Source: Candidatus Kuenenbacteria bacterium HGW-Kuenenbacteria-1 (GTDB lineage Bacteria; Patescibacteriota; Patescibacteriia; UBA2591; PGYQ01). From it: a stretch of DNA of 64,000 nucleotides. How positions within the stretch are numbered: the stretch's first letter is position 1; each line of letters opens with the position of its first letter. The notes below the pieces were generated by a model. That model saw only the letters and a list, made by a program, of their open reading frames with translations, had not been told where the DNA came from and ran no database searches. Made by a program: the position numbers and the translations under genes. This document shows positions 2,423 to 58,781 of this stretch, piece after piece. The DNA is taken from NCBI GenBank assembly GCA_002839745.1, contig PGYQ01000002.1, forward strand, positions 21,515 to 85,514, written 5' to 3'.

Positions 2423-2905
2423 ATGAGAATTTTTTGGAATGAAATCGGAACGCGATTTCCAGGCGGAACCGTCTGGCCCCAAGCATGCTCGGGATTTTTA
2501 GAATTTTACCGAGCATTAAATAATCCCTTGGAATTTGGGATTATTTCTTCAGGACACGATTTATTTATTGAAAAGTGTTTTGAAGTATGGGGTATTGAAA
2601 TTCCAAAAATTGTGGTCACTGACGACTTGATGCGAAGTCGTCGATGCGACAATTTTTCCCAGGCGGAAAGAGTAAAGCCTGGGGTTGGTCCATTTAAAAT
2701 TTTTTGCGAAGAATATAAAAAACTTTATGCAAAAAATTTAAATAAGGACCAAGTGCTGTATATTGGGGACAGCGCAAAAATGGATGATGATTTTGCAAGA
2801 AATTGTAAAATCTCATTTATTTTGTTCAACCCCAATGAATCAGATTTTAAGGGAAAATCAATTTCTGATTGGCGAGAATTAAAGGAGGTGATTTTAAAAA
2901 AATAA
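2423..2905 (+). pseudogene. HAD-superfamily hydrolase fragment: motifs II-IV present, motif I (DxD) absent. Region is GC-rich relative to the host.
   Basis: IISSG (motif II) and YIGDSAKMDDD (motif IV) are present. The frame stays open upstream to 2306 with no start codon and no DxDGT motif. Local GC is clearly higher than the surroundings. Confidence 0.4.
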
Positions 2906-2906
2906 A

Positions 2907-2940
2907 ACCCGTAATCAATTTATTTGATTACGGGTTTTAA
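2907..2940 (+). terminator. rho-independent terminator hairpin
   Basis: Hairpin AAAACCCGTAATCAA-TTTATT-TGATTACGGGTTTT directly after the HAD ORF. Confidence 0.6.
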
Positions 2941-2980
2941 ATTAATTTGTCAAATTTAAATTTTTTGCTATAATAAAAAA

Positions 2981-3519
2981 ATGAATAAATCAAATAAATT
3001 AAACTGGTATGTTTTAACTGGCGGACCTTCTTCTGGTAAAACCACTTTAATTAAAGAATTAAAAAAATTGGGCTATATTGTTTTTCTAGAAGCAGCCCGA
3101 GTTTTTATTGACAAAGAAATAGCCAAGGGTAAAATATTAAAAGAAATCAGAAACAATGAGACTGAATTTCAAAAAAAAATTTTAAAAATAAAAATAAAAA
3201 CAGAAAAAATAGCTCCAAAAAATAAAATAGTTTTTTTTGATAGAGCAATTCCCGATAGCATTGCTTATTATCAAACCTGTGGATTAAATCCAAAAGAAGT
3301 TTTAAAATTTTATAAAAAAAAATTTACAGAAAGATATTTTTTTTAGAACAACTTCCATTTGAAAATGATTATGCCCGAATTGAAGATAGCAAAACTATTA
3401 AAAAATTAAATAACCTTTTAAAAAAAAGTTATAAAGATTTAGGATATGAAATTATAAATATCCCTATAATGTCTATAGAAAAAAGAGTTCAAAAAATTTT
3501 AAGTGAGATAAAAAATTAA
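2981..3519 (+). CDS. P-loop NTPase (AAA_28/NadR-like ATPase-kinase family), interrupted by an apparent frameshift in a T8 run at 3337-3344
   Basis: N-terminal Walker A (GGPSSGKTT). The ORF stops at 3346. The +2 frame continues (QLPFENDYARIEDSKTIKKL...SEIKN*) to 3519. Confidence 0.5.
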
Positions 3520-34095: not shown

Positions 34096-34271
34096 TATTA
34101 TGACAAAACAAAATAAACACGAAAACACGAAAACATAAGAAATTTTAAATTATAAATTTTGGAAGATTGTTTAAATGCAGAAATCGAACCTTGGGAAATC
34201 CCGTAGGCCGATTCTATGTAATCGCCCACAGGGCGAAAACGTGGTTTCGCCCCTACGAAACGCAAATTGTT

Positions 34272-35149
34272 ATGCAATACAATTCCGAAATCCATCATCG
34301 TCGATCAATTAGATTAAAAGAATATGATTATTCGCAAAATGGCGTATATTTCATCACAATTTGTACGCAAAATCATGAATGTTTGTTTGGAAAAATTGAA
34401 AATGAAAAAATGATTTTAAATGAATACGGCAAAATTGTAAAAAAAGATTGGTTGGAAATCCCAAATCATTTTCCAAATATAATATTAGACAAATTTATTG
34501 TAATGCCCAACCATATTCACGGAATAATAATTATTGACGCATCCGTAGGGGCGTACCCTTGCGGTCGCCCTGTAATTAGGGCAGGGGCAAGCCCCACGGT
34601 TGGGCTGTTCTAAAATAATGACATCATAAAGTTTACATTATTTGTACATTTTTCAATTGTTTCTTGTATTTTGTTTAAATTATTTTTTCTGAAAATATTA
34701 ATTACTAAATTTCTGATTAAAGAATAATTTGCAGAAGCATTTCCTCACGGTTAGGGAAATTAATTAAGCCCCCTTGATAAAGGGGGTTGGGGGATTTCAT
34801 AAGAAAGAAACCCTCTAAATCCCCCTTATCAGGGGACAAAGAGAGAAGCAAACCTCTTAAAAGCCCCCTTGATAAAGGGGGTTGGGGGATTTCAGAAATT
34901 AAGAAACCCTCTAAATCTCCCTTATCAGGGAGACTTTATGGAAGAAGGATTTTCAAAATTATAAATCATTAGTTGCAAATAGGTGTTTAAATATTTATAA
35001 ATCAAAAAATAAATATATGGGGAAATTATAGCAACGGAATTATTTTGAACATATTATTCGTGATGAAAAATCATTAAATAAAATTCACGAATATATTTTT
35101 AACAATTTTTTGAAATGGGAATTTGACAGAAATAATCCAAAAAATTTAT
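34272..35149 (+). pseudogene. REP-associated tyrosine transposase (RAYT, IS200/Y1 family) split by a MITE insertion. N part is about 34272-34592, C part about 35028-35149.
   Basis: N part has HHRRSIRLKEYDYSQNGVYFITICT and the HuH motif (HIHGII). C part reads QRNYFEHIIRDEKSLNKIHEYIFNN, the catalytic-Tyr motif. The two parts are separated by a repeat element that has a near-identical second copy at 58479-58781. Confidence 0.65.
34593..35027. mobile_element. MITE-like element copy A (one clean terminal inverted repeat (TIR), internal 86-bp tandem duplication, degenerate distal end) inserted in the RAYT gene
   Basis: TIR CCACGGTTGGGCTGTTCTA lies at 34593-34611. The body is near-identical to the reverse complement of 58479-58781. 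Internal GC hairpin modules are CCCCCTTGATAAAGGGGG and CCCCTTATCAGGGG. The hairpin unit is duplicated at about 34768-34853 and 34863-34945. Confidence 0.65.
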
Positions 35150-35302: not shown

Positions 35303-35617
35303 ATGACAAAACAAAAACTTCAAAAAAATTTAAAACAAATTATCAAAGATCTCGAACCATATAAATCAGAAAAAATAATTCTTTATGGTTCTTGTGCTAA
35401 AGGTGATTTTAAAAAAAATAGTGATATTGATTTATTTATTATCAAAAAAACAAAAAAAAATTTTTTCGACAGACTTGACGATGTAAATAAATTAATTAAT
35501 CATAAAACGCCAATAGATATTCTTGTTTTTACTCCTAAAGAAATAAAAAAACGCCTTGCTTTAGAAGATTTCTTTTTTAAAGAAATAATTCAAAAAGGAA
35601 AAATTATTTATGAATAA
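35303..35617 (+). CDS. minimal nucleotidyltransferase (MNT), antitoxin of an MNT/HEPN pair
   Basis: GSCAKGDFKKNSDIDLFII nucleotidyltransferase motif; 104 aa; overlaps the downstream HEPN gene by 8 nt. Confidence 0.75.
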   Translation: MTKQKLQKNLKQIIKDLEPYKSEKIILYGSCAKGDFKKNSDIDLFIIKKTKKNFFDRLDDVNKLINHKTPIDILVFTPKEIKKRLALEDFFFKEIIQKGKIIYE

Positions 35618-36005
35618 TAAAAATTTAATTAAGGCAAAAGAATGGTTTAAAATTGCTGATAATGATTTTGGGTTTGCTAAATCCAGCTTTGAAGATAAGG
35701 ATGAATATTATGCTCAAATATGTTTTTTGTTTCATCAAGCTATTGAGAAATATTTAAAAGGCTACTTAATTGCTAAAGGAAAAATTCCTCAAAAAACTCA
35801 TGATTTAGCTTTTTTAATAGAAGAATGTAAAAAAATTAATTTAAAATTTAAAGAATTTGAATTAGAATGTAAAGAAATAAATAAATATTATATACCAAGT
35901 CGTTACCCAGTTCATTGGATAGAAGTAAAAAAAGAAAACACCAAAAAAGCTTTTGAAGCAGCAGAAAATATTACAAAATTCATCAAAGAAAACATTTTAT
36001 ATTAA
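35610..36005 (+). CDS. HEPN-domain protein (toxin of the MNT/HEPN pair)
   Basis: 131 aa, predicted helical, translationally coupled to the MNT gene. Confidence 0.65.
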   Translation: MNNKNLIKAKEWFKIADNDFGFAKSSFEDKDEYYAQICFLFHQAIEKYLKGYLIAKGKIPQKTHDLAFLIEECKKINLKFKEFELECKEINKYYIPSRYPVHWIEVKKENTKKAFEAAENITKFIKENILY

Positions 36006-37798: not shown

Positions 37799-38860
37799 TT
37801 AATTAATAATCTGCTGTTTTTTATCCTCTTCTTTTTTTAATTCAAAAAAATCTTTTATCAAAATAAATAAAGTGGTAGCAATAGGAATGGCTAATAACAT
37901 TCCAATAGGACCATATAATTTCCCGCCAATTAAAACAACAATAATAACCAATACTGGGTTTAATCCCACAATTTTACCCATTATTTTAGGAACCAGGATA
38001 TGATTTTCTAATTGTTGAATAATAAAATACAAAGCAATTACCAATAAAGCTGTAACAGGAGATTGAGTAAAAGCTAAAAATATAGCAGGAATAGCTCCTA
38101 TGATAGGACCGAAATATGGGATACATTCACTAATTCCAGCAATTAAAGCTAATAATAAGGCATATTTAACACCCAAAATTAAAAGCCCAATATAGCTAAA
38201 AAGACCTATTGATAAACATAAAATTAATTGCCCGCGCGACCAAAGACTTATTTTATTTTGCACTTGAGAAAAAAGCTGCAAAGTATAAGATTGAAATTTG
38301 TCAGGCACAATGGATTGAATAATTTTTTTCATTGCTTTTACTTCAAGCAATAAATAAAAAATCATAATTAAAACAAAAATAAAAGTAACTAAACCTCCAA
38401 AAATATCTATAACTCTGAAAAATATATTTTGTCCTATTTGAACTATGTTTTTATTTAAATCCTGAGATAAAAATTCTTTAGAAGTTGAAGTAAAGTTATC
38501 TATATTAGAATATTGTTGAACAATAGCAAACATTTCTGCTACTTTCCCTTTCCATTGAGGAAAATTTTCTACTGCTTGATTAATTTGATCAAATATTACT
38601 GGAACAATTAAAACAATAATAAAAAATATAACACAAAATATTACAAGATAAATAACAGAAATTGATATAATTCGCGGAATTTTTTTTCTTTGAAAATAAT
38701 TAACTAACGGATTAAGAGCTGCTGCCAAAATAATAGAAACAACGACAACAAGTATTACATCGCGAATTAAATACAAAAATCCAAAAATTAAAAAAATTCC
38801 AATTACCTTAATAATTGTCAAAGAGGAAATATTAATTGTAAGCTGATTTTTTTCTTGCAT
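37799..38860 (-). CDS. AI-2E family transporter (PerM/TqsA-like)
   Basis: 353 aa with about 8 TM helices and an AI-2E-like profile. Confidence 0.65.
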   Translation of the reverse strand: MQEKNQLTINISSLTIIKVIGIFLIFGFLYLIRDVILVVVVSIILAAALNPLVNYFQRKKIPRIISISVIYLVIFCVIFFIIVLIVPVIFDQINQAVENFPQWKGKVAEMFAIVQQYSNIDNFTSTSKEFLSQDLNKNIVQIGQNIFFRVIDIFGGLVTFIFVLIMIFYLLLEVKAMKKIIQSIVPDKFQSYTLQLFSQVQNKISLWSRGQLILCLSIGLFSYIGLLILGVKYALLLALIAGISECIPYFGPIIGAIPAIFLAFTQSPVTALLVIALYFIIQQLENHILVPKIMGKIVGLNPVLVIIVVLIGGKLYGPIGMLLAIPIATTLFILIKDFFELKKEEDKKQQIIN

Positions 38861-38875
38861 AAATATAAATAAAAA

Positions 38876-41206
38876 TTATAAATTAGATGAATAAGATAAA
38901 GATTTTATATAATTTTCCATAAATTCCCAATCAGGTTTTTCATTTTTTGATGGGAGTTTTATAATCCTTTCTTTTAATCTTGTTTGACTAGCTTTTATTC
39001 CATAATTATATCGATATTGTTCCATATTTAAAATTGTTGTTAAAAATAAACCAATATATTTATTCAACTCAAATTTTGGTATTAATTTTTCTACATGATC
39101 ACTTGCTGAAAATCTTTTTTCTTGAAATGAACAATATCCTATAACAGCACTATCAATAGTTAAAATGTTCCCTTCTTCTGTAAAAAAATCATAAAAACCT
39201 CTCACTCCATTATTAGTTGCTTGTGTAGTAATAAAAGGATATTCTCCTTTTCCATATTCTTCTAAATCTAAAATGGAAGTTGTTTTACTTCCAGTAATTT
39301 CAAACAAATCTATTAAATTAAAATTTTTCCAATTTTTTATATTTAATTTAATATTTTCATTTTTTGAAATACTAGATTTTAAAATATTTTTATTAATAAA
39401 AATATTATTTGCTATTTCAAAGGCTAAATAATTACGAACATCTTTCTCAAAATCCTCTTTTGAAATATTTGAATAATCCGTCTCCATATAAGCTTCGGCA
39501 CACCATTCGTCGTTTGCTTTTACGACTTTATTTACACTAAGCCCTGCAATATTTTCGTGATTTTGAAAATTTACTATCCATTCTTTTTTTATTTTATTTT
39601 TAAAATTTTCAAATAAATCAATTCTTCCTTTATTTTTTCTTTTTACAAAACCATCGTTTTTATAATATCCAAAATAAGTTTTCTTTTCTGCAGGATGAGG
39701 TCTCTTTGCTGTAAAAACCATAATACAAGAAACAACATTTACTTTTGAATTAAAAAATAATTCATCTGGCATTGAAAAAACTGCTTCCAGAGTATGCTTC
39801 TCTAAAACTTTTTCTTTCCATTCATAAACTTTTCCTGTTTGAGCTAATGCACTTTGCATCGGAACAATTGCAACACATTTTCCTCCTTGTTCTAAACAAT
39901 CCAAATTATTTAAAATAAATTCAAATTCATCTATATCATTTTTTTTATCTGATTTATAAGGAGGATTGAGCAAGCCGACTGTTGGTTTAGAATTTTTAAC
40001 TTGTTTAATAATTTTTTCATCAAAACAACTTCCGTGAAAAATATTTGTTTTTCCATCTTGATGTATAAACATATTTGAACAAGCAAGAGCAAAAATATCT
40101 GCTTGATATTCAACACCAATTAATTGTTTTGTTTTTATTTCTTTTTCTTTTTCTTTATCACCTTTTGCATCTTTAATCATTAAATTCATAGATGACACAA
40201 GAAAACCACCAGTTCCAGTGCAATTATCATAAACAATACTATCTTTATTTACTTCAACAATTTCTGTCATAAATTCTGTGATATGCGGTGGAGTCAAAAC
40301 TATTCCTAAACCTTTATCACTATTTGCATATCGTAAAAATTCTACATAAAGTTGCCCAAGCACATCAAGATATTTATGATTTTTTATAAAATCTTTTATA
40401 TTTTCATTTATGTCTGTAATTATTTCAAGCAAAACATTGTGCTTATTTGAAAGACTTGTATCTGTTTTTATAAAAGAAAATTTTTGATCTAAAATAGCAA
40501 GTTTTTTTTCTCCAATTTTTCCGTTTTCAAATTCATTTCTAACAGTGGTTAATAAAAATTCTGATAATTGTTTTGGGTTAGTATAAGTTTTATATCCATC
40601 TTCAAAAGATTTATTTTCCAGAGCAATTAAAACACAAGAAAGTAATAATGCTCGATCGCTTTCTTTAACTTTATGCAAATGTAAATTATCATTAAGTTTT
40701 TTTGAAAAATCTAAAAGATTATTAAAATCTTGCCGAAACTTTTCAGGACTTTTTATATAACCTTCTAAATAATCTTTCGCTAATAATAATTTATTTGAAA
40801 AAATTTCAACAGAATTTTTTTCTCCTTTCATTTGTAAAAAATGTGAGACTTTTAATTCTTTAATATCAGCACCACTAACCGCAATTGAAATCACATCATA
40901 ATCTTTTGCTAAATAAGATGAATATAACAAAACTCCATCAACAGCATAATCTTTTGCTTCTTTTTTTGTTTCACTTTGATGTTTTAAAATATCAAATTTA
41001 CATTCAACAACAATTAAAAGATCTGAATTATTTTTGTACTGAATAATAAATTCCGGAAAACCTTTTCCGTTTCCACTTTTAGAGGCAGTATTTAATAATT
41101 TTTGAATTTTCAAATTTTTAGAAGATTGTTCTTCCAAAATAATATCATCCGAATATTTTTTAAAATGGTCTCTAACAATATTTTCTGTATCTCTTTCGTT
41201 TTTCAT
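38876..41206 (-). CDS. single-chain Type IIG-like restriction-modification enzyme: N-terminal PD-(D/E)xK nuclease, gamma-class N6-adenine methyltransferase, C-terminal HsdS-like target recognition domain
   Basis: DLLIVVECKFD nuclease-like motif near the N-terminus. NPPY methylase motif (LLNPPYKSD). The C-terminal about 190 aa resembles a Type I S-subunit target recognition domain (TRD). Confidence 0.6.
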   Translation of the reverse strand: MKNERDTENIVRDHFKKYSDDIILEEQSSKNLKIQKLLNTASKSGNGKGFPEFIIQYKNNSDLLIVVECKFDILKHQSETKKEAKDYAVDGVLLYSSYLAKDYDVISIAVSGADIKELKVSHFLQMKGEKNSVEIFSNKLLLAKDYLEGYIKSPEKFRQDFNNLLDFSKKLNDNLHLHKVKESDRALLLSCVLIALENKSFEDGYKTYTNPKQLSEFLLTTVRNEFENGKIGEKKLAILDQKFSFIKTDTSLSNKHNVLLEIITDINENIKDFIKNHKYLDVLGQLYVEFLRYANSDKGLGIVLTPPHITEFMTEIVEVNKDSIVYDNCTGTGGFLVSSMNLMIKDAKGDKEKEKEIKTKQLIGVEYQADIFALACSNMFIHQDGKTNIFHGSCFDEKIIKQVKNSKPTVGLLNPPYKSDKKNDIDEFEFILNNLDCLEQGGKCVAIVPMQSALAQTGKVYEWKEKVLEKHTLEAVFSMPDELFFNSKVNVVSCIMVFTAKRPHPAEKKTYFGYYKNDGFVKRKNKGRIDLFENFKNKIKKEWIVNFQNHENIAGLSVNKVVKANDEWCAEAYMETDYSNISKEDFEKDVRNYLAFEIANNIFINKNILKSSISKNENIKLNIKNWKNFNLIDLFEITGSKTTSILDLEEYGKGEYPFITTQATNNGVRGFYDFFTEEGNILTIDSAVIGYCSFQEKRFSASDHVEKLIPKFELNKYIGLFLTTILNMEQYRYNYGIKASQTRLKERIIKLPSKNEKPDWEFMENYIKSLSYSSNL

Positions 41207-41240
41207 ATGATTGTTTTTTATAGTTAAAAACTTCTATATT

Positions 41241-41431
41241 GATTATTTTACATCAAATTTTTAATAAAGGCAAAAAGAGTTTTGTGTTTTCAAAGGGGCT
41301 TATTATGGCTAAATTTAATTTATTGGTTTGAAAAATTTCTTTTGCCAAATAAAATCCGTATCATCTGTTTCTAAAAGTAAATTTCCTTTTAAGTATTCTT
41401 TAATTTTATTTAATTCTACTTTTGACACTTT
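41241..41431. repeat. about 190-bp duplicate of the 3' end of the M16 peptidase gene (copy of 43919-44110)
   Basis: Near-identical apart from one 4-bp indel (TTAC). Confidence 0.8.
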
Positions 41432-41445
41432 AATGTTTATTGTGA

Positions 41446-42188
41446 CTAACGATATGTTATGGTGTATAATCCTAATATATATTCTATATGATCATCTATT
41501 AAATTAAAAAAAACAATTAATATATCTGTAGTTGTTGTTTTATATTCATCTCGATTATTTTTTAAACGCACTATATCGCTAAATCTAGTCACAACATCAT
41601 TAGGCATTCTATTTTTAATCTCATCCAAAATATCTTGACCTGTCACACAAGTTTTATAGAGAGCTTGAACAGTTAGCTTTGTAATAATAATTGCGAGATG
41701 TAAAACTCTTTCCAAAACATCAGCGTTTAAATTTTCTCTTGTCATTATTCTCATATATATATTGTAAAGATTTCCTACCTCTTTAAGGCTAAATTCCTTG
41801 ATTTGCGATTCTGAAAATTTTGGCAAGAGATTATTGTGATCGTCACATCCAAAAATTTGCTGATATCCCAAATTTACCTCTATAATTGACTGAATAATTT
41901 TGCCATCAATGGTTAATAAATTAGGATTTTCTGCATTCAAAAAATTTTTACTAATAACGACGCCACTAATCTTCAAGGCGTAATTATTTATAAGCTCATT
42001 AAAACAGCTGTTTATTTTATGTTTCTCGCCATAATTAATATTGTAAACAACAAGCACGAAGTCTATATCACTATCAATAGAAATATCTTTTCCGACACCA
42101 TAACTGCCAGCACCTATAGTATACGCAAAATTTTCACCTAATTTTTTTTAATGCGAGCAGATAGCTCCGCAAAATTTCCATCAAACAT
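41446..42188 (-). CDS. Pol-beta superfamily nucleotidyltransferase (KNTase/ANT(4')-like size and layout). Frame changes in a homopolymer run at 42142-42149.
   Basis: ATG at 42188 gives MFDGNFAELSARIKKN*. The other frame continues KKLGENFAYTIGAGSYGVGKDISIDSDIDFVLVV (GS..G...DxD NTase motif) into the listed ORF 41446-42057. Confidence 0.5.
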
Positions 42189-42195
42189 AATTTAT

Positions 42196-43545
42196 TTACT
42201 TAAAAATTTTGGCAATCATTTTTTTCTCATCTTCAAATGAACACAGTTTTATTGCTTCATTTGGAGAGACAAGAAAAGCATCGATAAAGCCTTCGGCTAT
42301 CAGCGCCTTAAGTTTAATTTTCTTACCTTCTATAAGATATGTGCTAACCGTTTTGTTGTGAGTTGCAAAACCATATTCGGGAGTAAAGGTGTAAGAATAT
42401 TCACCGATTTTTCCTTTTACAATTCCACTTTTAAGTCCTGCTTCCTCTTTAACTTCTCGCAAAGCAGCGTCGCTAGATTTTTCTCCATAATTAACATGAC
42501 CTTTGGGTAAAAAAATACGTCCATTAGTTTTTTTAATTAAAAGAATTTTTGCACCCTCTTTATTTTTAAAATAAACAACAGCACTAGCTGATAAATGGTT
42601 AATAACCCTCTTTTGTTCCACCGCAACAGCATGTTTAACTAACTCAACTATTTGCGAGGGAGTTTGAAATGTAATGAAGTAAGATGATACCTTTTGCAAA
42701 ATTTGGTCTGTACAGGCTCTCCTGCTCAAAGCCAATCGCTTACAATCCTTCTCTATATTAAAAATTTCCGTACTATCTGTTCTTTTGATCCAACTAGCAC
42801 GATCATATTTAGGATAAAGAAATTTTGCCATATGTGAAAAGGCCAAAATATCAAGATTTGCTCTTGCCTTATTTTCTGATAAACGAACTACTTTTGGTTC
42901 TGCCTTTAGGCTGAATCTGGGATAAACAATCATTGAAAGTTGTGCCTCTAAACTTGATTTTATACCAAAATCACCCAAAGAATAAAGTCCGCGACATTTA
43001 GGATTACTATTAATTAAAATCCCACGGTTGTTAAGATCTACTAAATATTCATCACGTATATGTATCGAAAGAGTCGAGAAATCAAGTATGGCATTACTGG
43101 CAACATCATATACACTAAACTCATCACTTACATACTCATTACTTTTTAAACCCAGTTCTATAGAGGCCGTTGTCTTGCCAACATTTGTTCCATCATCACC
43201 AAATAATATAGCTTTACTCTCACACCATATGGCCGTTGAGGCATGCAAAAGAAGTTGAGGTTTATCAACAGATAAGAAATCTGCAAATCTAAATATGATT
43301 TGCATTATCATAATAGGCAAAAGATGGTCGGAACAATTATCGAGTGCTGGTCCAGCCACCACAACAGATCGACTTTTTACATTAATTATTATGGACTTTT
43401 CTTTTGCCCTCTTAAAAATAATTACTCCATCACTTTTTTCAACTGGCACAATTTTAAAAGACTTCAATATATTATTAATGACTTTTGATTCTTTTTTAAT
43501 ATCAATCTTTAAAATCACCAAACCGATTTGTATATATTTAATCAT
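42196..43545 (-). CDS. two-domain protein: HprK-like P-loop kinase/phosphorylase domain plus C-terminal NUDIX hydrolase
   Basis: LLLHASTAIWCESKAILFGDDGTNVGKTTASIELG resembles the HprK C-domain P-loop (GDSGVGKSETALEL). Nudix box GHVNYGEKSSDAALREVKEEAGL. Confidence 0.55.
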   Translation of the reverse strand: MIKYIQIGLVILKIDIKKESKVINNILKSFKIVPVEKSDGVIIFKRAKEKSIIINVKSRSVVVAGPALDNCSDHLLPIMIMQIIFRFADFLSVDKPQLLLHASTAIWCESKAILFGDDGTNVGKTTASIELGLKSNEYVSDEFSVYDVASNAILDFSTLSIHIRDEYLVDLNNRGILINSNPKCRGLYSLGDFGIKSSLEAQLSMIVYPRFSLKAEPKVVRLSENKARANLDILAFSHMAKFLYPKYDRASWIKRTDSTEIFNIEKDCKRLALSRRACTDQILQKVSSYFITFQTPSQIVELVKHAVAVEQKRVINHLSASAVVYFKNKEGAKILLIKKTNGRIFLPKGHVNYGEKSSDAALREVKEEAGLKSGIVKGKIGEYSYTFTPEYGFATHNKTVSTYLIEGKKIKLKALIAEGFIDAFLVSPNEAIKLCSFEDEKKMIAKIFK

Positions 43546-43666
43546 ATAAATTGTAGAAGTTTTTAATGTTTTAAGGCTAAAAAAATTTTACAAATATATT
43601 TTCTTTTTATAAAATTATTCGAATAGTTGATATTAATTTTAAGTTATCAAAAAAAAGTTAGGGGGC

Positions 43667-43745
43667 GGTGCAGGTCGATGATTAGTCGACCTGCACCGTT
43701 AAAACAAGAGGGATTCGAACCTGCCAAGGTTTTCGCACAGACTTT
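43667..43745. other. perfect 12-bp-stem GC-rich hairpin followed by a degenerate tRNA T-arm-like fragment
   Basis: GGTGCAGGTCGA-tgattag-TCGACCTGCACC, then GAGGGATTCGAACCTGCC. Confidence 0.4.
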
Positions 43746-43860
43746 CAGACGAGTTATTAAAAATCGGTTTAATAATAAAATTTGCTATGTCGTGGCTAAC
43801 ATATATCTCTTCACACAAAGGAATAAGCGCGATTTCTATTTTTATTTTTTGCATATTATT

Positions 43861-43915
43861 TTAATAATTGTCAAAGAGGAAATATTAATTGTAAGCTGAT
43901 TTTTTTCTTGCATAA
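43861..43915. repeat. 55-bp duplicate of the 5' end (first 17 codons plus start) of the AI-2E transporter gene (copy of 38810-38864)
   Basis: Exact 55-bp identity; directly abuts the intact 3' end of the peptidase gene. Confidence 0.85.
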
Positions 43916-43929
43916 TATTTATTATTACA

Positions 43930-45102
43930 TCAAATTTTTAATAAAGGCAAAAAGAGTTTTGTGTTTTCAAAGGGGCTTATTATGGCTAAATTTAATTTAT
44001 TGGTTTGAAAAATTTCTTTTGCCTTACAAATAAAATCCGTATCATCTGTTTCTAAAAGTAAATTTCCTTTTAAGTATTCTTTAATTTTATTTAATTCTAC
44101 TTTTGACACTTTAATATTTTTTAATTTCTTAAATTCACGCAAAATTATTTTTATTGCTTGATTAATTTTATTAATATTTAATCCAGCACTCACAACCAAA
44201 GCTCCTGTTTCATTATAATAATCAATGGAAGAATAAATATAATAAGCCAATCCCCTTTTTTCTCTAATTTCCATAAAAAGCCTTGAACTCATTGTCCCAC
44301 CTAAAATAACGCTTAAAACTTGATAGACTGTCTTTTGTGGATTATTATATGAAAGATAATCTGATTTTAAACTTAAACATAAATGCGCTTGATCAGTTTC
44401 TTTTTTATATAATAAAATCTGCGGTTTTTTTTGTTGATCTTCTACTTTTTTAAATTTTTTTATAGATTTATTTTTAATTTTATTAAATATTTTCTCTACT
44501 TCTATAATTACTTGTTCATGTTTTATATCCCCTGCCACACTAATTACCATATTTGAAGGTTGATATAAATCCTTTATATAATTTATAAAATCTTCTCTTT
44601 TAATTTTTTCTATAATCTTTTTTTCTCCTAAAGGATCAAACCCTAAATTCTGTTCTTTCCACATTAATTGTTGAATCAAAGTGGAAATATAAGACTGAGG
44701 ATTATCTAAATACATATTAATTTCCTCAAGAATTACTCCTTTTTCTTTTTCAATTTCTTCTGATTTAATCAGAGAATTTAAAACTAAATCTGAAAGAAAT
44801 TCAATACCTAATTTGAAATGCTTTTTTGGCACTTTGGTCCAAAAACCCGTGTGATCAATAGAAGTAAAAGCGTTAATTTGTCCACCAACTTTTTCAATTG
44901 TTTCTGAAATTTGTTTTGCATTTGGCCTTTTTTTTGTTCCCTTAAAAAACATATGCTCTAAAAAATGTGAAATGCCATTATTATTTTTATTTTCATATCT
45001 TGATCCAGCGCCAATTAAAATAATAGAAGCGACAGATTTCATTTCTGGCATTTCACTAGTAATAATTCTCAAACCATTTTTTAAAATTGTTTTTTTAAAC
45101 AT
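43930..45102 (-). CDS. M16-family zinc metallopeptidase (insulinase-like)
   Basis: Inverted zinc motif HFLEHMFFKGT (HxxEH). Confidence 0.75.
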   Translation of the reverse strand: MFKKTILKNGLRIITSEMPEMKSVASIILIGAGSRYENKNNNGISHFLEHMFFKGTKKRPNAKQISETIEKVGGQINAFTSIDHTGFWTKVPKKHFKLGIEFLSDLVLNSLIKSEEIEKEKGVILEEINMYLDNPQSYISTLIQQLMWKEQNLGFDPLGEKKIIEKIKREDFINYIKDLYQPSNMVISVAGDIKHEQVIIEVEKIFNKIKNKSIKKFKKVEDQQKKPQILLYKKETDQAHLCLSLKSDYLSYNNPQKTVYQVLSVILGGTMSSRLFMEIREKRGLAYYIYSSIDYYNETGALVVSAGLNINKINQAIKIILREFKKLKNIKVSKVELNKIKEYLKGNLLLETDDTDFICKAKEIFQTNKLNLAIISPFENTKLFLPLLKI

Positions 45103-45137: not shown

Positions 45138-46028
45138 CTAATGATTTAATAATATTGGTGCGACAACATCATTATTTTCCACTGGTTTTTTGATGCATTG
45201 ATAACCTGCATCATGAAACCATTGATCATTTGGATAATTATAATGTTCATCATGATTATTTTTATTTGAAGTTTTAAAATTAGCGCATAATTCATATGTA
45301 TCTTCTGAAATTATTTTATATTCAACTTTTTCTTTTGTTTTTGGATTTCGTATTTCATTCTCGCTTTGAATAAATCCACCTAATAATAATTCTTCAAAAT
45401 TTTCTGGCAATTTCTTTTTAGAAAAATAATAAGAATTTATCGCTCTTTTAATATTAAAAATTTTTTCTGCAACCATATAATCTTGTTTTTTATTTCTAGT
45501 TTCTTGTGGCGATTCAACAAAAAAAATGCTACTAATTAGCGTTGCTATAATAATTAACAATGCGCCATAAAAATAAATTTGAGAAATTTTACTTTTCGTT
45601 TTTTCAACGATTTTCCGTTTAATATCATAAAAATAATAAGAAAAAACAATTCCTGAAATAATAATGGCTGTTATGGTTTTCAAAATAAATTTAATAGATA
45701 ATTCACCATTTAAAAAATTAAAAATCAATGAAATTAAATAACCAATTATTACCACCGAAGAAGCAAACAAAATAAAATAGGTTAACCATTTTCTAATGCC
45801 AGAATTTTTATCTAACAAACCTAAAAATAAATTTTTATTAATTTGCCAAGTCATAATAAAAAAAATTGGCACGCAGACAATAATTGCTGAAATGGCAAGT
45901 TTAAGAGCATCTATATCGTATTCGCTATTAAAACTTTCAGTTATATCAACAATATTTTTATTAATAATTTGAAAAATAATTATTCCGATTGATGTAGCCG
46001 TAAAACCTAAAGCCACTAAAGACAACAT
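45138..46028 (-). CDS. hypothetical polytopic membrane protein with Cys-containing C-terminal soluble domain
   Basis: ORF with multiple TM helices. Confidence 0.3.
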   Translation of the reverse strand: MLSLVALGFTATSIGIIIFQIINKNIVDITESFNSEYDIDALKLAISAIIVCVPIFFIMTWQINKNLFLGLLDKNSGIRKWLTYFILFASSVVIIGYLISLIFNFLNGELSIKFILKTITAIIISGIVFSYYFYDIKRKIVEKTKSKISQIYFYGALLIIIATLISSIFFVESPQETRNKKQDYMVAEKIFNIKRAINSYYFSKKKLPENFEELLLGGFIQSENEIRNPKTKEKVEYKIISEDTYELCANFKTSNKNNHDEHYNYPNDQWFHDAGYQCIKKPVENNDVVAPILLNH

Positions 46029-46155: not shown

Positions 46156-49100
46156 TTATTTTATTTTATATTCTTTTCTATCATAAAATTCTTCTTGTTT
46201 ACCTTCATGCCATTGTTGTATTGGTCTAATATAACCAGTAACTCGGGAATATACTTCACAATTTTTATTACATTGCGGACACTTAAAATGTTCTCCTGCA
46301 ATATAACCATGGTCAGGACAAACACTGAAAGTTGGAGTAATGGTAAAATATGGCAAATGATAATTTTCAGCAATTCGTTTAACTAATTGCTTAGTTGCTT
46401 CAACTGATGGCATTTTTTCTCCAATAAATCCATGAAAAACCGTTCCTCCTGAATATTTACATTGTAATTCATCTTGAAAATCTAAAGCTTCAAAAATATC
46501 ATCTGTATAATTTACTGGCAAATGGCTAGAATTGGTATAATAAAAAGCTTTTTCTCCTGCAGTAATTATTTTTGGATATTTTTTTTTGTCAATTTTAGCC
46601 AAACGATAAGAAGTTCCTTCAGCAGGGACTGCTTCTAAATTGTAAATATTTCCTGTTTCATTTTGAATTTCTTTCAATTTTTCTCGCATAAAATCTAAAA
46701 TTTCTAAAGCAAATTCTCTCCCCTCTTTACTGGCTATGTCTTTATTTTTGCCTAAAAAATTTAAACAAGCCTCATTAATTCCCAAAGGTCCAATGGTAGA
46801 AAAATGATGATCTAAATTTCCTAAATATCTTTTAGTATAAGGAAATAATCCATTATTTAAATTATGAGTAACTACTTTTCTTTTAATTTCTAAAGATTCT
46901 TTTGCTAAATCCATTTGTTTGGCTAATCGATCAAAAAAATCTTTTTTATCTTTTGCTAAATAACCAATGCGAGGCATATTAATAGTCACAACTCCCACCG
47001 AACCAGTTGATTCGCCAGAACCAAAAAGTCCACCTGTCTTTGCTCTTAATTGATTAAGATTCATTTGTAATCTACAACACATTGATCGAACATCGGTTGG
47101 TTTTAATTCACTATTTATAAAATTTTGGAAATATGGTATTCCATATTTGGCTGTCATTTCAAAAAGTAAATTTGTATTTGAAGTATCCCAATTAAAATCT
47201 TTAGTAATATTATATGTAGGAATTGGAAATGTAAAAACCCTCCCTTTATTATCCCCTTCTGTGGCTACTTCTATAAAAGCCCTATTTATCATATCCATTT
47301 CTTTTTGATAATCCTCATAAGTAGTTTCTTGTAATTTGCCACCAATAATTACTGGATCGTTTTTTAAATCTTCCGGCACAGTCCAATCAAAGGTTAAATT
47401 AGTAAATGGCGTATTCCCTGTTATAAAAGTTTTTCCATTTCTTCTTGCAATAAAAGTGCCATTTAAAGTAGTTGGACACCAAACTTTTCCTTTGTATTTT
47501 TTCTTTGAAATTTGAGTTATTGAAGTTATATTATTTCTAATAATATTTATAACGTAAACGCCATTTTCTCTTTGTTTAATGGTTGTTCCATAATTAGACA
47601 AAACGCATAATTCTTGTAAATCATTTTTATTTTTTTCATCTTTTGTAAATATTCTTATCCTACCTTTAAACTCTCGATGACCATCACCTTTAATATAAGT
47701 ATGAATAAAAAGTTGGATTTGATCAGCGGAAAGTGTTTTAATTAAAGAAGGTATTTCTTTTTTATTTATTATTTTTCGAATTTTTTTTGAAGATTCTTGA
47801 TTTAATCTAAATCTTAAAATTATTCCACTATTTAAAAATCCACCATTTTTTTTCATTTCATCCCATTTAAAATTCAATTTTTTTAAACAGGTTCTTATTT
47901 CATTACAATTAGCTATATTTTTTTCTGATTGAAATATATAAACTCGATCTCTATCACCATCTGAAAAACTTCCTTCAGAAACAAACCAAGCAATTATTTT
48001 TAATAAATTTTCGTCTATTTCTTTTTTTGAAACAGTTATAGATGAATTGGGTATTAAAATTGGCGTTTTAAATTTTAAAGCTTTTTCAATTTCTAATAAT
48101 TCAAACTCGCCATTATTAAATATTTTTCTGACAATTTTGTGACCAGGTGTTATTAATTGATCTTGTGTTCTATTTTTTAAATTAAATAAATAACCATTAT
48201 AATCATAAGAACAAACTCTTTCTGGTTTTAAATATTCAATTATTTTTTTTTCTAAATTAAAAGTTGCTATCTTATCTTCTTTTTTAATCTCTAAATATTT
48301 TTTCCATCCATTATCTGTTAATGCTTCTGTGTCTTCACTAACACATTGAGTCCCCCATCTAGAAGGTGCGGCAATATTAAACATAAATTTTTGAATATTT
48401 TGTTTTACTTCTTTATAAGTTAAATGATCCGCTCGCACAAATGGAGCTAAATAAGTATCAAAAGAACTAAAGGCTTGAGCCCCAGCCCATTCATTTTGTA
48501 AAATTCCCCAAAAATTTACCATTTGTCCCAAAACTGTTTCTAAATGTTTGGGTGGCGCGCATTCAATTCGATTTTCAACACCTCCCAATCCTTGCAAAAG
48601 TAATTGTCGTAAACTCCAACCAGCACAATAAGCATTTAAACCCATTGATAAATCATGAAGATGTATATCTCCCTCTTTATGAGCTTGAGCAATTTTTGCT
48701 GGATAAACATTTTCTAAAAGATAATTAGCAATAACGGACCCAGAAATATGAAGCATCAATCCTCCAAACGAATAACCAATATTGGCATTTTCTTTTACTC
48801 TCCAATCTTCTTGTTTTAAATAACCATCCATAATTTTTTCAATATCCATCATTACTCCGCCCATTTCACGCACTTTTTCTTGCTGTTTTCTATATAAAAT
48901 ATAAGCCTTTGCCACTTCAACCAAACCAGCTTTAATTAAAACCTTTTCAACAATGTCTTGGATTTCTTCAACAGTGGGAATATTTTTTGAATCAAATTGA
49001 TATTCAAGAATGGTTAATACCTTATCAGATAATTTTTTTGACTTTTTTCCATCTTTTCCTTCAATAGCAACAATGGCCTTATAAATGGCTTGAGTAATTT

Positions 49101-49176
49101 TTTCTTGATCAAATTCAACCATTCTTCCATTCCGCTTCCGAATTTTTTGTATTTTAAATTTTTTTATTTGTTTCAT
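46156..49176 (-). CDS. nrdD: anaerobic ribonucleoside-triphosphate reductase (class III, NrdD) interrupted by an intein
   Basis: N-terminal ATP-cone. C-terminal Zn ribbon (CPDHG...CPQCNKNC) and glycyl-radical motif (SRVTGYIRP). Extein junctions are RWGTQ|C and N|TPFTN. Confidence 0.8.
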   Translation of the reverse strand: MKQIKKFKIQKIRKRNGRMVEFDQEKITQAIYKAIVAIEGKDGKKSKKLSDKVLTILEYQFDSKNIPTVEEIQDIVEKVLIKAGLVEVAKAYILYRKQQEKVREMGGVMMDIEKIMDGYLKQEDWRVKENANIGYSFGGLMLHISGSVIANYLLENVYPAKIAQAHKEGDIHLHDLSMGLNAYCAGWSLRQLLLQGLGGVENRIECAPPKHLETVLGQMVNFWGILQNEWAGAQAFSSFDTYLAPFVRADHLTYKEVKQNIQKFMFNIAAPSRWGTQCVSEDTEALTDNGWKKYLEIKKEDKIATFNLEKKIIEYLKPERVCSYDYNGYLFNLKNRTQDQLITPGHKIVRKIFNNGEFELLEIEKALKFKTPILIPNSSITVSKKEIDENLLKIIAWFVSEGSFSDGDRDRVYIFQSEKNIANCNEIRTCLKKLNFKWDEMKKNGGFLNSGIILRFRLNQESSKKIRKIINKKEIPSLIKTLSADQIQLFIHTYIKGDGHREFKGRIRIFTKDEKNKNDLQELCVLSNYGTTIKQRENGVYVINIIRNNITSITQISKKKYKGKVWCPTTLNGTFIARRNGKTFITGNTPFTNLTFDWTVPEDLKNDPVIIGGKLQETTYEDYQKEMDMINRAFIEVATEGDNKGRVFTFPIPTYNITKDFNWDTSNTNLLFEMTAKYGIPYFQNFINSELKPTDVRSMCCRLQMNLNQLRAKTGGLFGSGESTGSVGVVTINMPRIGYLAKDKKDFFDRLAKQMDLAKESLEIKRKVVTHNLNNGLFPYTKRYLGNLDHHFSTIGPLGINEACLNFLGKNKDIASKEGREFALEILDFMREKLKEIQNETGNIYNLEAVPAEGTSYRLAKIDKKKYPKIITAGEKAFYYTNSSHLPVNYTDDIFEALDFQDELQCKYSGGTVFHGFIGEKMPSVEATKQLVKRIAENYHLPYFTITPTFSVCPDHGYIAGEHFKCPQCNKNCEVYSRVTGYIRPIQQWHEGKQEEFYDRKEYKIK
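47413..48345 (-). mobile_element. intein (311 aa) with a LAGLIDADG-type homing endonuclease domain inside nrdD
   Basis: Starts with Cys (CVSEDTEALTDNG) and ends ...ITGN, followed by extein Thr. Internal KIIAWFVSEGSFSDGD is a LAGLIDADG-like motif. Confidence 0.65.
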
Positions 49177-49556: not shown

Positions 49557-51373
<1,817 letters not shown>

Positions 51374-58478: not shown

Positions 58479-58781
58479 CCACGGTTGGGCTGTTCTACAA
58501 AAAATAAAAATAATTTTGAAAATCCTTCTTTCATAAAGTCTCCCTGATAAGGGAGATTTAGAGGGTTTCTTAATTTCTGAAATCCCCCAACCCCCTTTAT
58601 CAAGGGGGCTAATTAATTTCCCTAACCATAAGGAAATGCTCCTGCAAATTATTCTTTAATTAGAAATTTGGTAATTAATATTTTTCTAAAAAATAATTTA
58701 AACAAAATACAAGAAACAATTGAAAAATATACAAATAATGTAAAATTTATGATGCCATTATTTTAGAACATCCCAACCGTA
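58479..58781. mobile_element. MITE-like element copy B (303 bp) with 18-19 bp terminal inverted repeats and a 9-bp target-site duplication
   Basis: Left TIR CCACGGTTGGGCTGTTCTA at 58479-58497. Right TIR TAGAACATCCCAACCGTA at 58764-58781. Flanking direct repeat CCTTAAACC at 58470-58478 and 58782-58790. No ORF inside. Confidence 0.75.

Follow-up and report, generated by a model that had tools for sequence, protein, structure and literature searches.

Two interleaved repeat pairs at a peptidase-transporter junction

We analyzed a 64 kb stretch of DNA, referred to below as the window, from Candidatus Kuenenbacteria HGW-Kuenenbacteria-1, an uncultured groundwater bacterium of the Patescibacteria or Candidate Phyla Radiation (CPR). 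The subject is a block of about 5 kb that separates the genes for an M16 peptidase and an AI-2E family transporter and carries two foreign-looking cargoes among duplicated fragments of both neighboring genes. All genes at the locus lie on the minus strand. From high to low coordinates they encode NrdD, a DUF5671 protein, the M16 peptidase (43930..45102, Pfam PF00675 and PF05193), then, after a short non-coding stretch, a 449-amino acid (aa) Nudix fusion protein, a 203-aa open reading frame (ORF), a 776-aa protein with N6_Mtase and Methylase_S domains, and the intact transporter (37799..38860, Pfam PF01594, E 2.8e-69). As comparison assemblies of the same genome we used GCA_017973855.1, JGI 3300029891, ENA ERZ27239245 (MEGAHIT, k=141) and Logan SRR3546457, among which GCA_017973855.1 and JGI 3300029891 span the locus, as the window does.

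Read in gene direction along the minus strand, the locus runs peptidase-Y, 9-nt spacer, X', cargo A, Y', cargo B and X-transporter, where X/X' and Y/Y' denote two pairs of direct repeats. Y (43925..44115) is the end of the peptidase gene plus 5 nt past its TGA stop, and the spacer that follows (43916..43924) reads TAATAAATA on the minus strand. X' (43861..43915) is an exact 55-nt copy of the transporter start, consisting of 2 nt, the ATG and 17 codons, which here opens into a dead-end ORF of 23 codons. Y' (41248..41434) repeats the 3' end of the peptidase gene and X (38808..38862) is the functional start of the transporter gene. A repeat search and a self-BLAST of the window both give an exact 55-nt match between 38808-38862 and 43861-43915, and within the window Y (191 nt) and Y' (187 nt) are ∼96% identical with gaps. 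These are the only pairs of this size found by self-BLAST in the 64 kb, apart from one family resembling repetitive extragenic palindromic (REP) sequences. The repeats are real and not chance matches. Both pairs consist of ordinary coding sequence of the neighboring genes and are interleaved, not nested.

A preliminary description of the window had reported the exact 55-bp repeat of the transporter start, albeit with coordinates for X that were 2 nt off, and had proposed comparing the window with itself, which recovers both repeat pairs. It had also recognized that the ancestral junction survives, and this junction is indeed intact at Y/X'. Its account of the long repeat as ∼190 bp with a single 4-bp indel proved to be an assembly artefact. 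The window is 100% identical to the four other assemblies save at three sites, each about 100 nt short within a repeat. Relative to the other assembled sequences (L001-L003, L164 and L165) it lacks 102 nt at 44023/44024, 106 nt at 41346/41347 and 106 nt at 34960/34963. In GCA_017973855.1 and JGI 3300029891, Y and Y' each measure 293 nt and are identical at 293/293 positions. In the window the central 102 nt of Y and 106 nt of Y' are missing, which leaves 92+99 and 89+100 nt, respectively. The three losses look like scaffold joins that dropped the middle of a repeat, with the kept ends of ∼99 nt probably representing k-mer overlaps. Because the two other spanning assemblies carry identical 293-nt copies, the 4-bp indel is the scar of two such joins and not a divergence between copies.

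The collapse at 44023/44024 also shortens the M16 peptidase by 34 residues, from the 424 aa encoded in the other assemblies to 390 aa. The 424-aa form aligns end to end with its relatives (residues 1-424), and the segment absent from the window is conserved in L004, the closest relative. The window is in this respect a cautionary case for annotation, being a public contig with three repeat-linked collapses of ∼100 nt, one of which truncates a conserved peptidase. We also considered whether the 55-nt repeat could be a k=55 de Bruijn artefact and rejected this, as the X'/A junction is also present in the k=141 assembly.

With the lengths of the repeats corrected, the duplicated ancestral target amounts to 357 nt (293-nt Y, 9-nt spacer and 55-nt X), and cargo A lies exactly between its two copies. 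The left copy is unbroken and the right copy holds cargo B. Despite the insertion, the peptidase gene upstream and the transporter gene downstream are both intact and all genes are co-oriented.

To establish the state of this junction in related genomes we searched with the peptidase as query, keeping one genome per species, which gave 80 loci in total and 75 species with enough downstream sequence. A same-strand AI-2E gene follows the peptidase gene in 53 of the 75 species at a gap of -21 to +171 nt, and in one further species the gap is 435 nt. In the closest relative, L004 (81% aa identity for the peptidase and 73% for the transporter), the gap is 7 nt. Homologues of the 776-aa protein, the Nudix fusion protein and the nucleotidyltransferase (NTase) to which the 203-aa ORF belongs were absent within 10 kb of the peptidase gene at all 80 loci. 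Adjacency of the two genes was likewise seen in 8/8 metagenome contigs with a transporter at least 37% identical. As the genes abut in 53 of 75 related species, none of which has the cargo, we conclude that the empty site is ancestral. The peptidase-transporter pair is a conserved unit and the 5-kb block is specific to this lineage. We rejected the idea of a recurrent insertion hotspot, since 0 of the 53 other species with the pair carry an insert and no gap exceeds 435 nt. The accessory insertion at an ancestral junction that the preliminary description proposed is thereby supported by empty sites at the between-species level. Within the species, a metagenome scan with the transporter, protein clusters and exact-protein look-ups yielded no empty-site or single-cargo haplotype; the scan returned nothing closer than 50% identity, the 90% protein clusters hold this genome only, and the look-ups led to no arrangement other than the one described here.

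Contents of the two cargoes

Cargo B spans 38863-41247 and consists of a single restriction-modification (R-M) gene (38876..41206, minus strand) with 41 nt upstream to Y' and 13 nt downstream to X. This cargo stands in place of the 9-nt spacer that would otherwise join Y' to the transporter sequence TT ATG, and shows no duplication of its own. The PADLOC model REase_MTase_IIG (PDLC03608) covers residues 8-601 of the 776-aa product with an E value of 1.3e-162, and Pfam places N6_Mtase at residues 281-596 and Methylase_S, the C-terminal target recognition domain, at residues 624-768. By these matches a single polypeptide is predicted to combine a nuclease region at the N-terminus with a gamma-class N6-adenine methyltransferase and a target recognition domain, as expected of a Type IIG enzyme, and the PADLOC match bears out the Type IIG label that the gene had been given in the preliminary description. 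More than 6000 homologues were found at E <1e-50 in many phyla, the best being 72% identical, and homologues in the range of 60-72% identity themselves come from many phyla. Such a distribution is what a single-gene R-M system spread by horizontal transfer typically shows. The GC content of cargo B is 24.5% and host-like.

Cargo A, ∼2.4 kb long, is of a different kind. Comparison with related loci shows it to be what is left of a decaying operon of six genes, of a nucleotide or cyclitol type, in which a kinase-Nudix gene is the sole intact member. In relatives this operon encodes a 3-dehydroquinate (DHQ) synthase-like protein, a 137-aa Nudix protein, a 366-390-aa double P-loop kinase, sometimes a methyltransferase, a kinase-Nudix fusion and a 224-245-aa protein. 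Directly after X', A opens with 97 nt that match positions 170-266 of the related locus L175 (87%, BLASTN), from position -10 of the DHQ-synthase-like gene to its codon 29. The next stretch matches L175 positions 2882-3045 (81%), which hold the last ∼26 codons of the double kinase gene and the region downstream. Because these flanking stretches match the start of the first gene and the end of the kinase gene, ∼2.6 kb of the operon must have been deleted in A. The scar of this internal deletion is a 51-codon fusion ORF (43699..43854, minus strand) in which the first ∼29 codons, DHQ-synthase-like, are joined in frame to the last ∼22 codons of the double P-loop kinase gene, and tblastn with the upstream proteins of the related loci L168 and L170 also detects these remnants. 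A begins 10 nt before the first start codon of the operon and ends ∼20-45 nt past its last stop.

The operons of the relatives sit in contexts unrelated to the peptidase or the transporter, and more distant versions adjoin genes for nucleoside diphosphate kinase (NDK), a DegT-type aminotransferase and a glycosyltransferase. The operon may represent an uncharacterised cyclitol or nucleotide-sugar pathway. As found in L168-L175 it is small and restricted to the CPR, and it combines two Nudix proteins with an ANT-like nucleotidyltransferase. The GC content of A is 31%, compared with 27.8% for the window and 33-44% for relatives carrying the operon, and A looks like foreign DNA. A second copy that could have served as its source was not found elsewhere in the window. 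In plasmid and phage collections the matches to A were limited to the Nudix domain, and a plasmid or phage origin was rejected on this ground.

The intact gene of cargo A (42196..43545, minus strand) encodes a 449-aa protein in which a P-loop kinase resembling phosphoenolpyruvate carboxykinase (PEPCK) and HprK is predicted to be fused to a Nudix domain like that of diadenosine tetraphosphate (Ap4A) hydrolase. The protein has a Pfam NUDIX match with a complete Nudix box, and its AlphaFold model has a pLDDT of 91.5. In Foldseek comparisons of this model the N-terminal 300 residues resemble ATP-dependent PEPCK (TMq ∼0.4) and the C-terminus resembles the Ap4A hydrolase 3i7u. The PEPCK fold class also includes HprK. 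The HprK/P family model TIGR04352 matched at an E value of 0.015 with 14.5 bits against a cut-off of 200, and we accordingly describe the N-terminal part as a PEPCK/HprK-like P-loop fold and not as a demonstrated member of the HprK/P family. Besides the protein of the window there are 11 homologues, with 42-89% identity.

Downstream of the kinase-Nudix gene lies a Pol-beta-type NTase gene (41446..42188, minus strand) that is frameshifted by a 1-nt deletion in an A8 run at 42142-42149, such that tblastn alignments are split over two frames. The first 15 codons are thereby cut off from the catalytic motif, and the called 203-aa ORF (41446-42057) starts after that motif. All assemblies agree on this base. 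The relatives of the NTase are 244 aa long, carry the motif G[AS]GSYG..SDIDF and have weak matches to NTP_transf_2 and ANT(3''). We note that -1 slippage on A AAA AAA would yield a product matching the relatives exactly in length. The gene could simply be a pseudogene, or its expression could be phase-variable or depend on slippage.

Right after the stop of the kinase-gene remnant stands a GC-rich hairpin with a 13-bp stem (43666-43698, minus strand; fold z = -3.8). The same hairpin occupies the corresponding position in L168, L170 and L175, where its stem is invariant and its loop varies. It is native to the operon and does not mark the insertion. It may act as an intra-operon terminator or attenuator. 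The stretch from X' to the kinase-Nudix gene was searched for known structured RNAs, and the idea was dismissed, as Rfam matches there were at chance level only. A promoter scan gave 41 matches, no real excess over the 33.9 ± 5.5 in shuffled sequence, and no promoters were called.

These identifications modify several labels in the preliminary description. It had treated the whole block as defense cargo, which fits the R-M gene but not cargo A, an operon fragment whose kinase-Nudix and NTase proteins matched no defense model, and hence no known anti-phage system, in PADLOC. The NTase gene is of the type named there, judging by its relatives, but is frameshifted here. What had been called an HprK-Nudix gene is an intact kinase-Nudix fusion whose score lies far below the HprK/P cut-off. 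The hairpin is present, with a stem of 13 bp and not 12, yet belongs with the operon relatives and not with the insertion.

Origin of the arrangement

The junctions of cargo A carry little shared sequence. The X'/A junction has only TTAA in common with the operon upstream sequence in L175 and the A/Y' junction shares only AA(A), suggesting that both are illegitimate joins with 2-4 nt of microhomology. Searches of the 38.8-44.1 kb region with Pfam, NCBIfam and PADLOC found no integrase, transposase, relaxase or replication gene, the only matches being to the R-M and Nudix proteins, and ARAGORN and Rfam detected no tRNA or tRNA fragment in the block. The recombinase and attachment (att) sites, often at a tRNA 3' end, that define integrase-mediated integrative elements were not found there.

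We consider it rather probable, though by no means assured, that the ancestral two-gene unit received cargo A by an insertion with long target duplication and cargo B by a separate simple insertion. In such a scheme host general recombination or repair would insert A with no recombinase encoded by the element. A circular molecule in which A is joined to a Y-spacer-X' fragment would undergo a single homologous crossover with the chromosomal site, leaving the target duplicated around A, and cargo B would enter the 9-nt spacer of the right target copy as a separate simple insertion. Two histories can be envisaged. If B was already in the chromosome, the crossover would fall within the 293-nt Y and the target fragment on the circle would derive from a B-less sibling; otherwise B would have entered the right spacer later. 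An allele with A and an allele with B could also be combined by a double-crossover exchange through Y' and the transporter gene. The topology agrees exactly with the Campbell-type integration put forward in the preliminary description, and a circle with a single crossover is a plausible and the simplest route, but it is unproven and other routes fit too. We infer the circle and the order of the insertions from the layout. Recency, which the preliminary description took as given, is similarly deduced. The identities of 293/293 and 55/55 between repeat copies, compared with ∼80% nucleotide identity to the nearest species, point to a recent event or to ongoing gene conversion. Perfect repeats fit recency, but cargo A has already decayed.

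Several points weigh against this insertion scheme. The deletion and frameshift in A are hard to reconcile with a very recent arrival, except if A was defective before it came in. The published class of insertions with long target duplication was defined on R-M cargo, and here the full duplicated target brackets a non-R-M block. The circular intermediate was not observed in the assemblies, the metagenome scan and protein clusters gave no A-less or B-less haplotype of this species, and all assemblies may stem from one site or population. In addition, the MEGAHIT k=141 assembly breaks the locus into three contigs (L177, L166 and L001) whose ends lie exactly 141 nt into Y, with a 2772-nt contig bounded by a Y suffix and a Y prefix, and in the Logan assembly, too, X' and Y' delimit the contig that carries A. 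Taken alone, the assembly graph also fits a chromosome with the order peptidase-Y-B-X accompanied by Y-X'-A as a 2.7-kb circle or tandem array.

This last observation gives rise to the proposal that the locus is not one chromosome, and that assemblers joined a peptidase-Y-B-X-transporter chromosome to a separate 2.7-kb Y-spacer-X'-A circle or array through the 293-nt repeat. The 100% identity of the repeats and the collapse of both Y copies in the window itself are compatible with it. We regard it as quite unlikely all the same. The two other spanning assemblies, from JGI and NCBI, and the scaffold of the window all thread the locus as peptidase-Y-X'-A-Y'-B-X, with A separating the peptidase gene from the R-M gene. 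No replication gene is present in A, and a non-replicating circle would not reach assembly-level coverage. Because the spanning assemblies thread the integrated path and A lacks a replication function, integration is favored, and the integrated form is much more likely than a circle plus chromosome. Moreover, if there were a separate circle, it would be the form that insertion by single crossover predicts as an intermediate of excision or integration. A tandem duplication that came first is, in our judgment, unlikely. The 357-nt segment would have been doubled by slipped or illegitimate recombination, after which A entered at the X'/Y' join and B the right spacer. It gives the same final topology, it accommodates the microhomology at both A junctions, and B does look like an independent simple insertion. 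Yet it needs three events where a single insertion-duplication explains A in one step, and A would have had to strike the single novel join exactly, with no leftover X'/Y' join or filler.

Very improbable, in our view, is that a site-specific recombinase or transposase mobilized the block as a genomic island, in which case the repeats would be its att sites or target-site duplications. Direct repeats do flank the cargo, an IS200/RAYT-like ORF (34167-34613) lies 3 kb off, and GGTTCGAATCC at ∼43712 resembles a tRNA T-loop. Against this stand the missing mobility and tRNA genes described above, and the repeats are coding sequence of the neighboring genes in an interleaved and not a nested order. 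The T-loop-like string was rejected as a tRNA-fragment att site, as it is coding sequence for the C-terminus of the kinase remnant and is conserved as protein in L168 and L170.

The insertion scheme has a more speculative extension in which Y-spacer-X'-A is a live, reversible cassette that is excised as a 2.7-kb circle, re-enters or is amplified by homologous recombination, possibly spreads by DNA uptake and may use the NTase A8 run as a slippage switch. We hold this to be improbable. If true, it would constitute a recombinase-free mobility cycle in a CPR bacterium. A mobility cycle of this kind is said to have been proposed by Kobayashi for R-M genes.

Neighboring features and comparison with known systems

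Other features of the window lie outside the block. Upstream of the peptidase gene, and like it on the minus strand, are the genes for the DUF5671 protein (45138-46028) and for the 1006-aa NrdD (46156-49176). The Pfam match of NrdD falls into two stretches with a LAGLIDADG-like segment between them (residues ∼486-548, E 4e-4), and NrdD probably contains an intein. The 16S rRNA gene (49558-51373) spans 1816 nt compared with 1533 nt for the Rfam model, implying an insertion of ∼280 nt. Insertions in 16S rRNA genes are common in CPR bacteria. Just downstream of the transporter gene is a minimal nucleotidyltransferase/HEPN pair (35303-36005; 104 and 131 aa) that resembles a toxin-antitoxin system and adjoins a 538-aa protein similar to pilins of type IV secretion systems (T4SS). 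The IS200/RAYT-like ORF mentioned above carries the motif HIHGII and adjoins REP-like repeats at 34596-34962, inverted copies of which lie 24 kb away at 58510-58780; neither the ORF nor the repeats have a visible tie to the cargo junctions.

CPR bacteria have tiny, streamlined genomes with few classical mobile elements. If our reading of the locus is right, foreign DNA entered a tightly conserved gene junction in such a genome by recombination alone, and the target duplication kept both neighboring genes intact. The locus would then support the idea that genes move in CPR organisms by illegitimate together with homologous recombination, possibly following DNA uptake, and such events are rarely documented in this lineage.

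Insertion with long target duplication was reportedly described by Nobusato and colleagues in 2000. Furuta, Abe and Kobayashi (2010, PMC2853133) define the class by direct repeats of >30 bp, a target present as a single copy in an insert-less genome, an insert of <20 kb with restriction and modification genes, and the absence of mobility genes and multicopy repeats. In the cases they describe, R-M genes of all types, mostly in naturally competent hosts, lie in inserts without mobility genes flanked by direct target repeats of 46 to ∼420 bp, and the mechanism is not established in that literature (PMC2853133). At our locus the repeats measure 55 nt (X'/X) and 293 nt (Y/Y') and both are 100% identical, the target is single-copy in L004 and 52 other species by interspecific comparison only, no mobility genes were found, and within the window the repeats occur at this locus only. 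An insert of <20 kb with both R and M functions is found between X' and X (5 kb, with a fused R-M gene) but not between Y and Y', which enclose the operon fragment. The likeness to this class thus consists of foreign genes, including an R-M gene, that lack a mobility gene and are flanked by repeats of tens to hundreds of bp overlapping gene ends. Unlike the published cases, the locus has two interleaved repeat pairs and not one, the 357-nt target brackets a partly degraded non-R-M operon fragment with the R-M gene lying within the second copy of the target, the host belongs to the CPR, and the empty site comes from other species and not from another strain.

Campbell-type insertion-duplication produces a target-cargo-target order from a contiguous ancestor, which matches Y-spacer-X' ... 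Y'-(B)-X exactly. It differs in that no vector, replicon or circle is observed here, and the circle would require illegitimate joining of foreign DNA to a 357-nt fragment. With defense islands and mobile R-M cargo the locus shares a horizontally spread Type IIG gene between conserved core genes, but it holds one defense gene only, the neighboring cargo has no defense match and the site is not a recurrent hotspot. Taken together, nothing at this locus points to a new biological system, and we regard it as a clear if unremarkable instance of an insertion of a known type.

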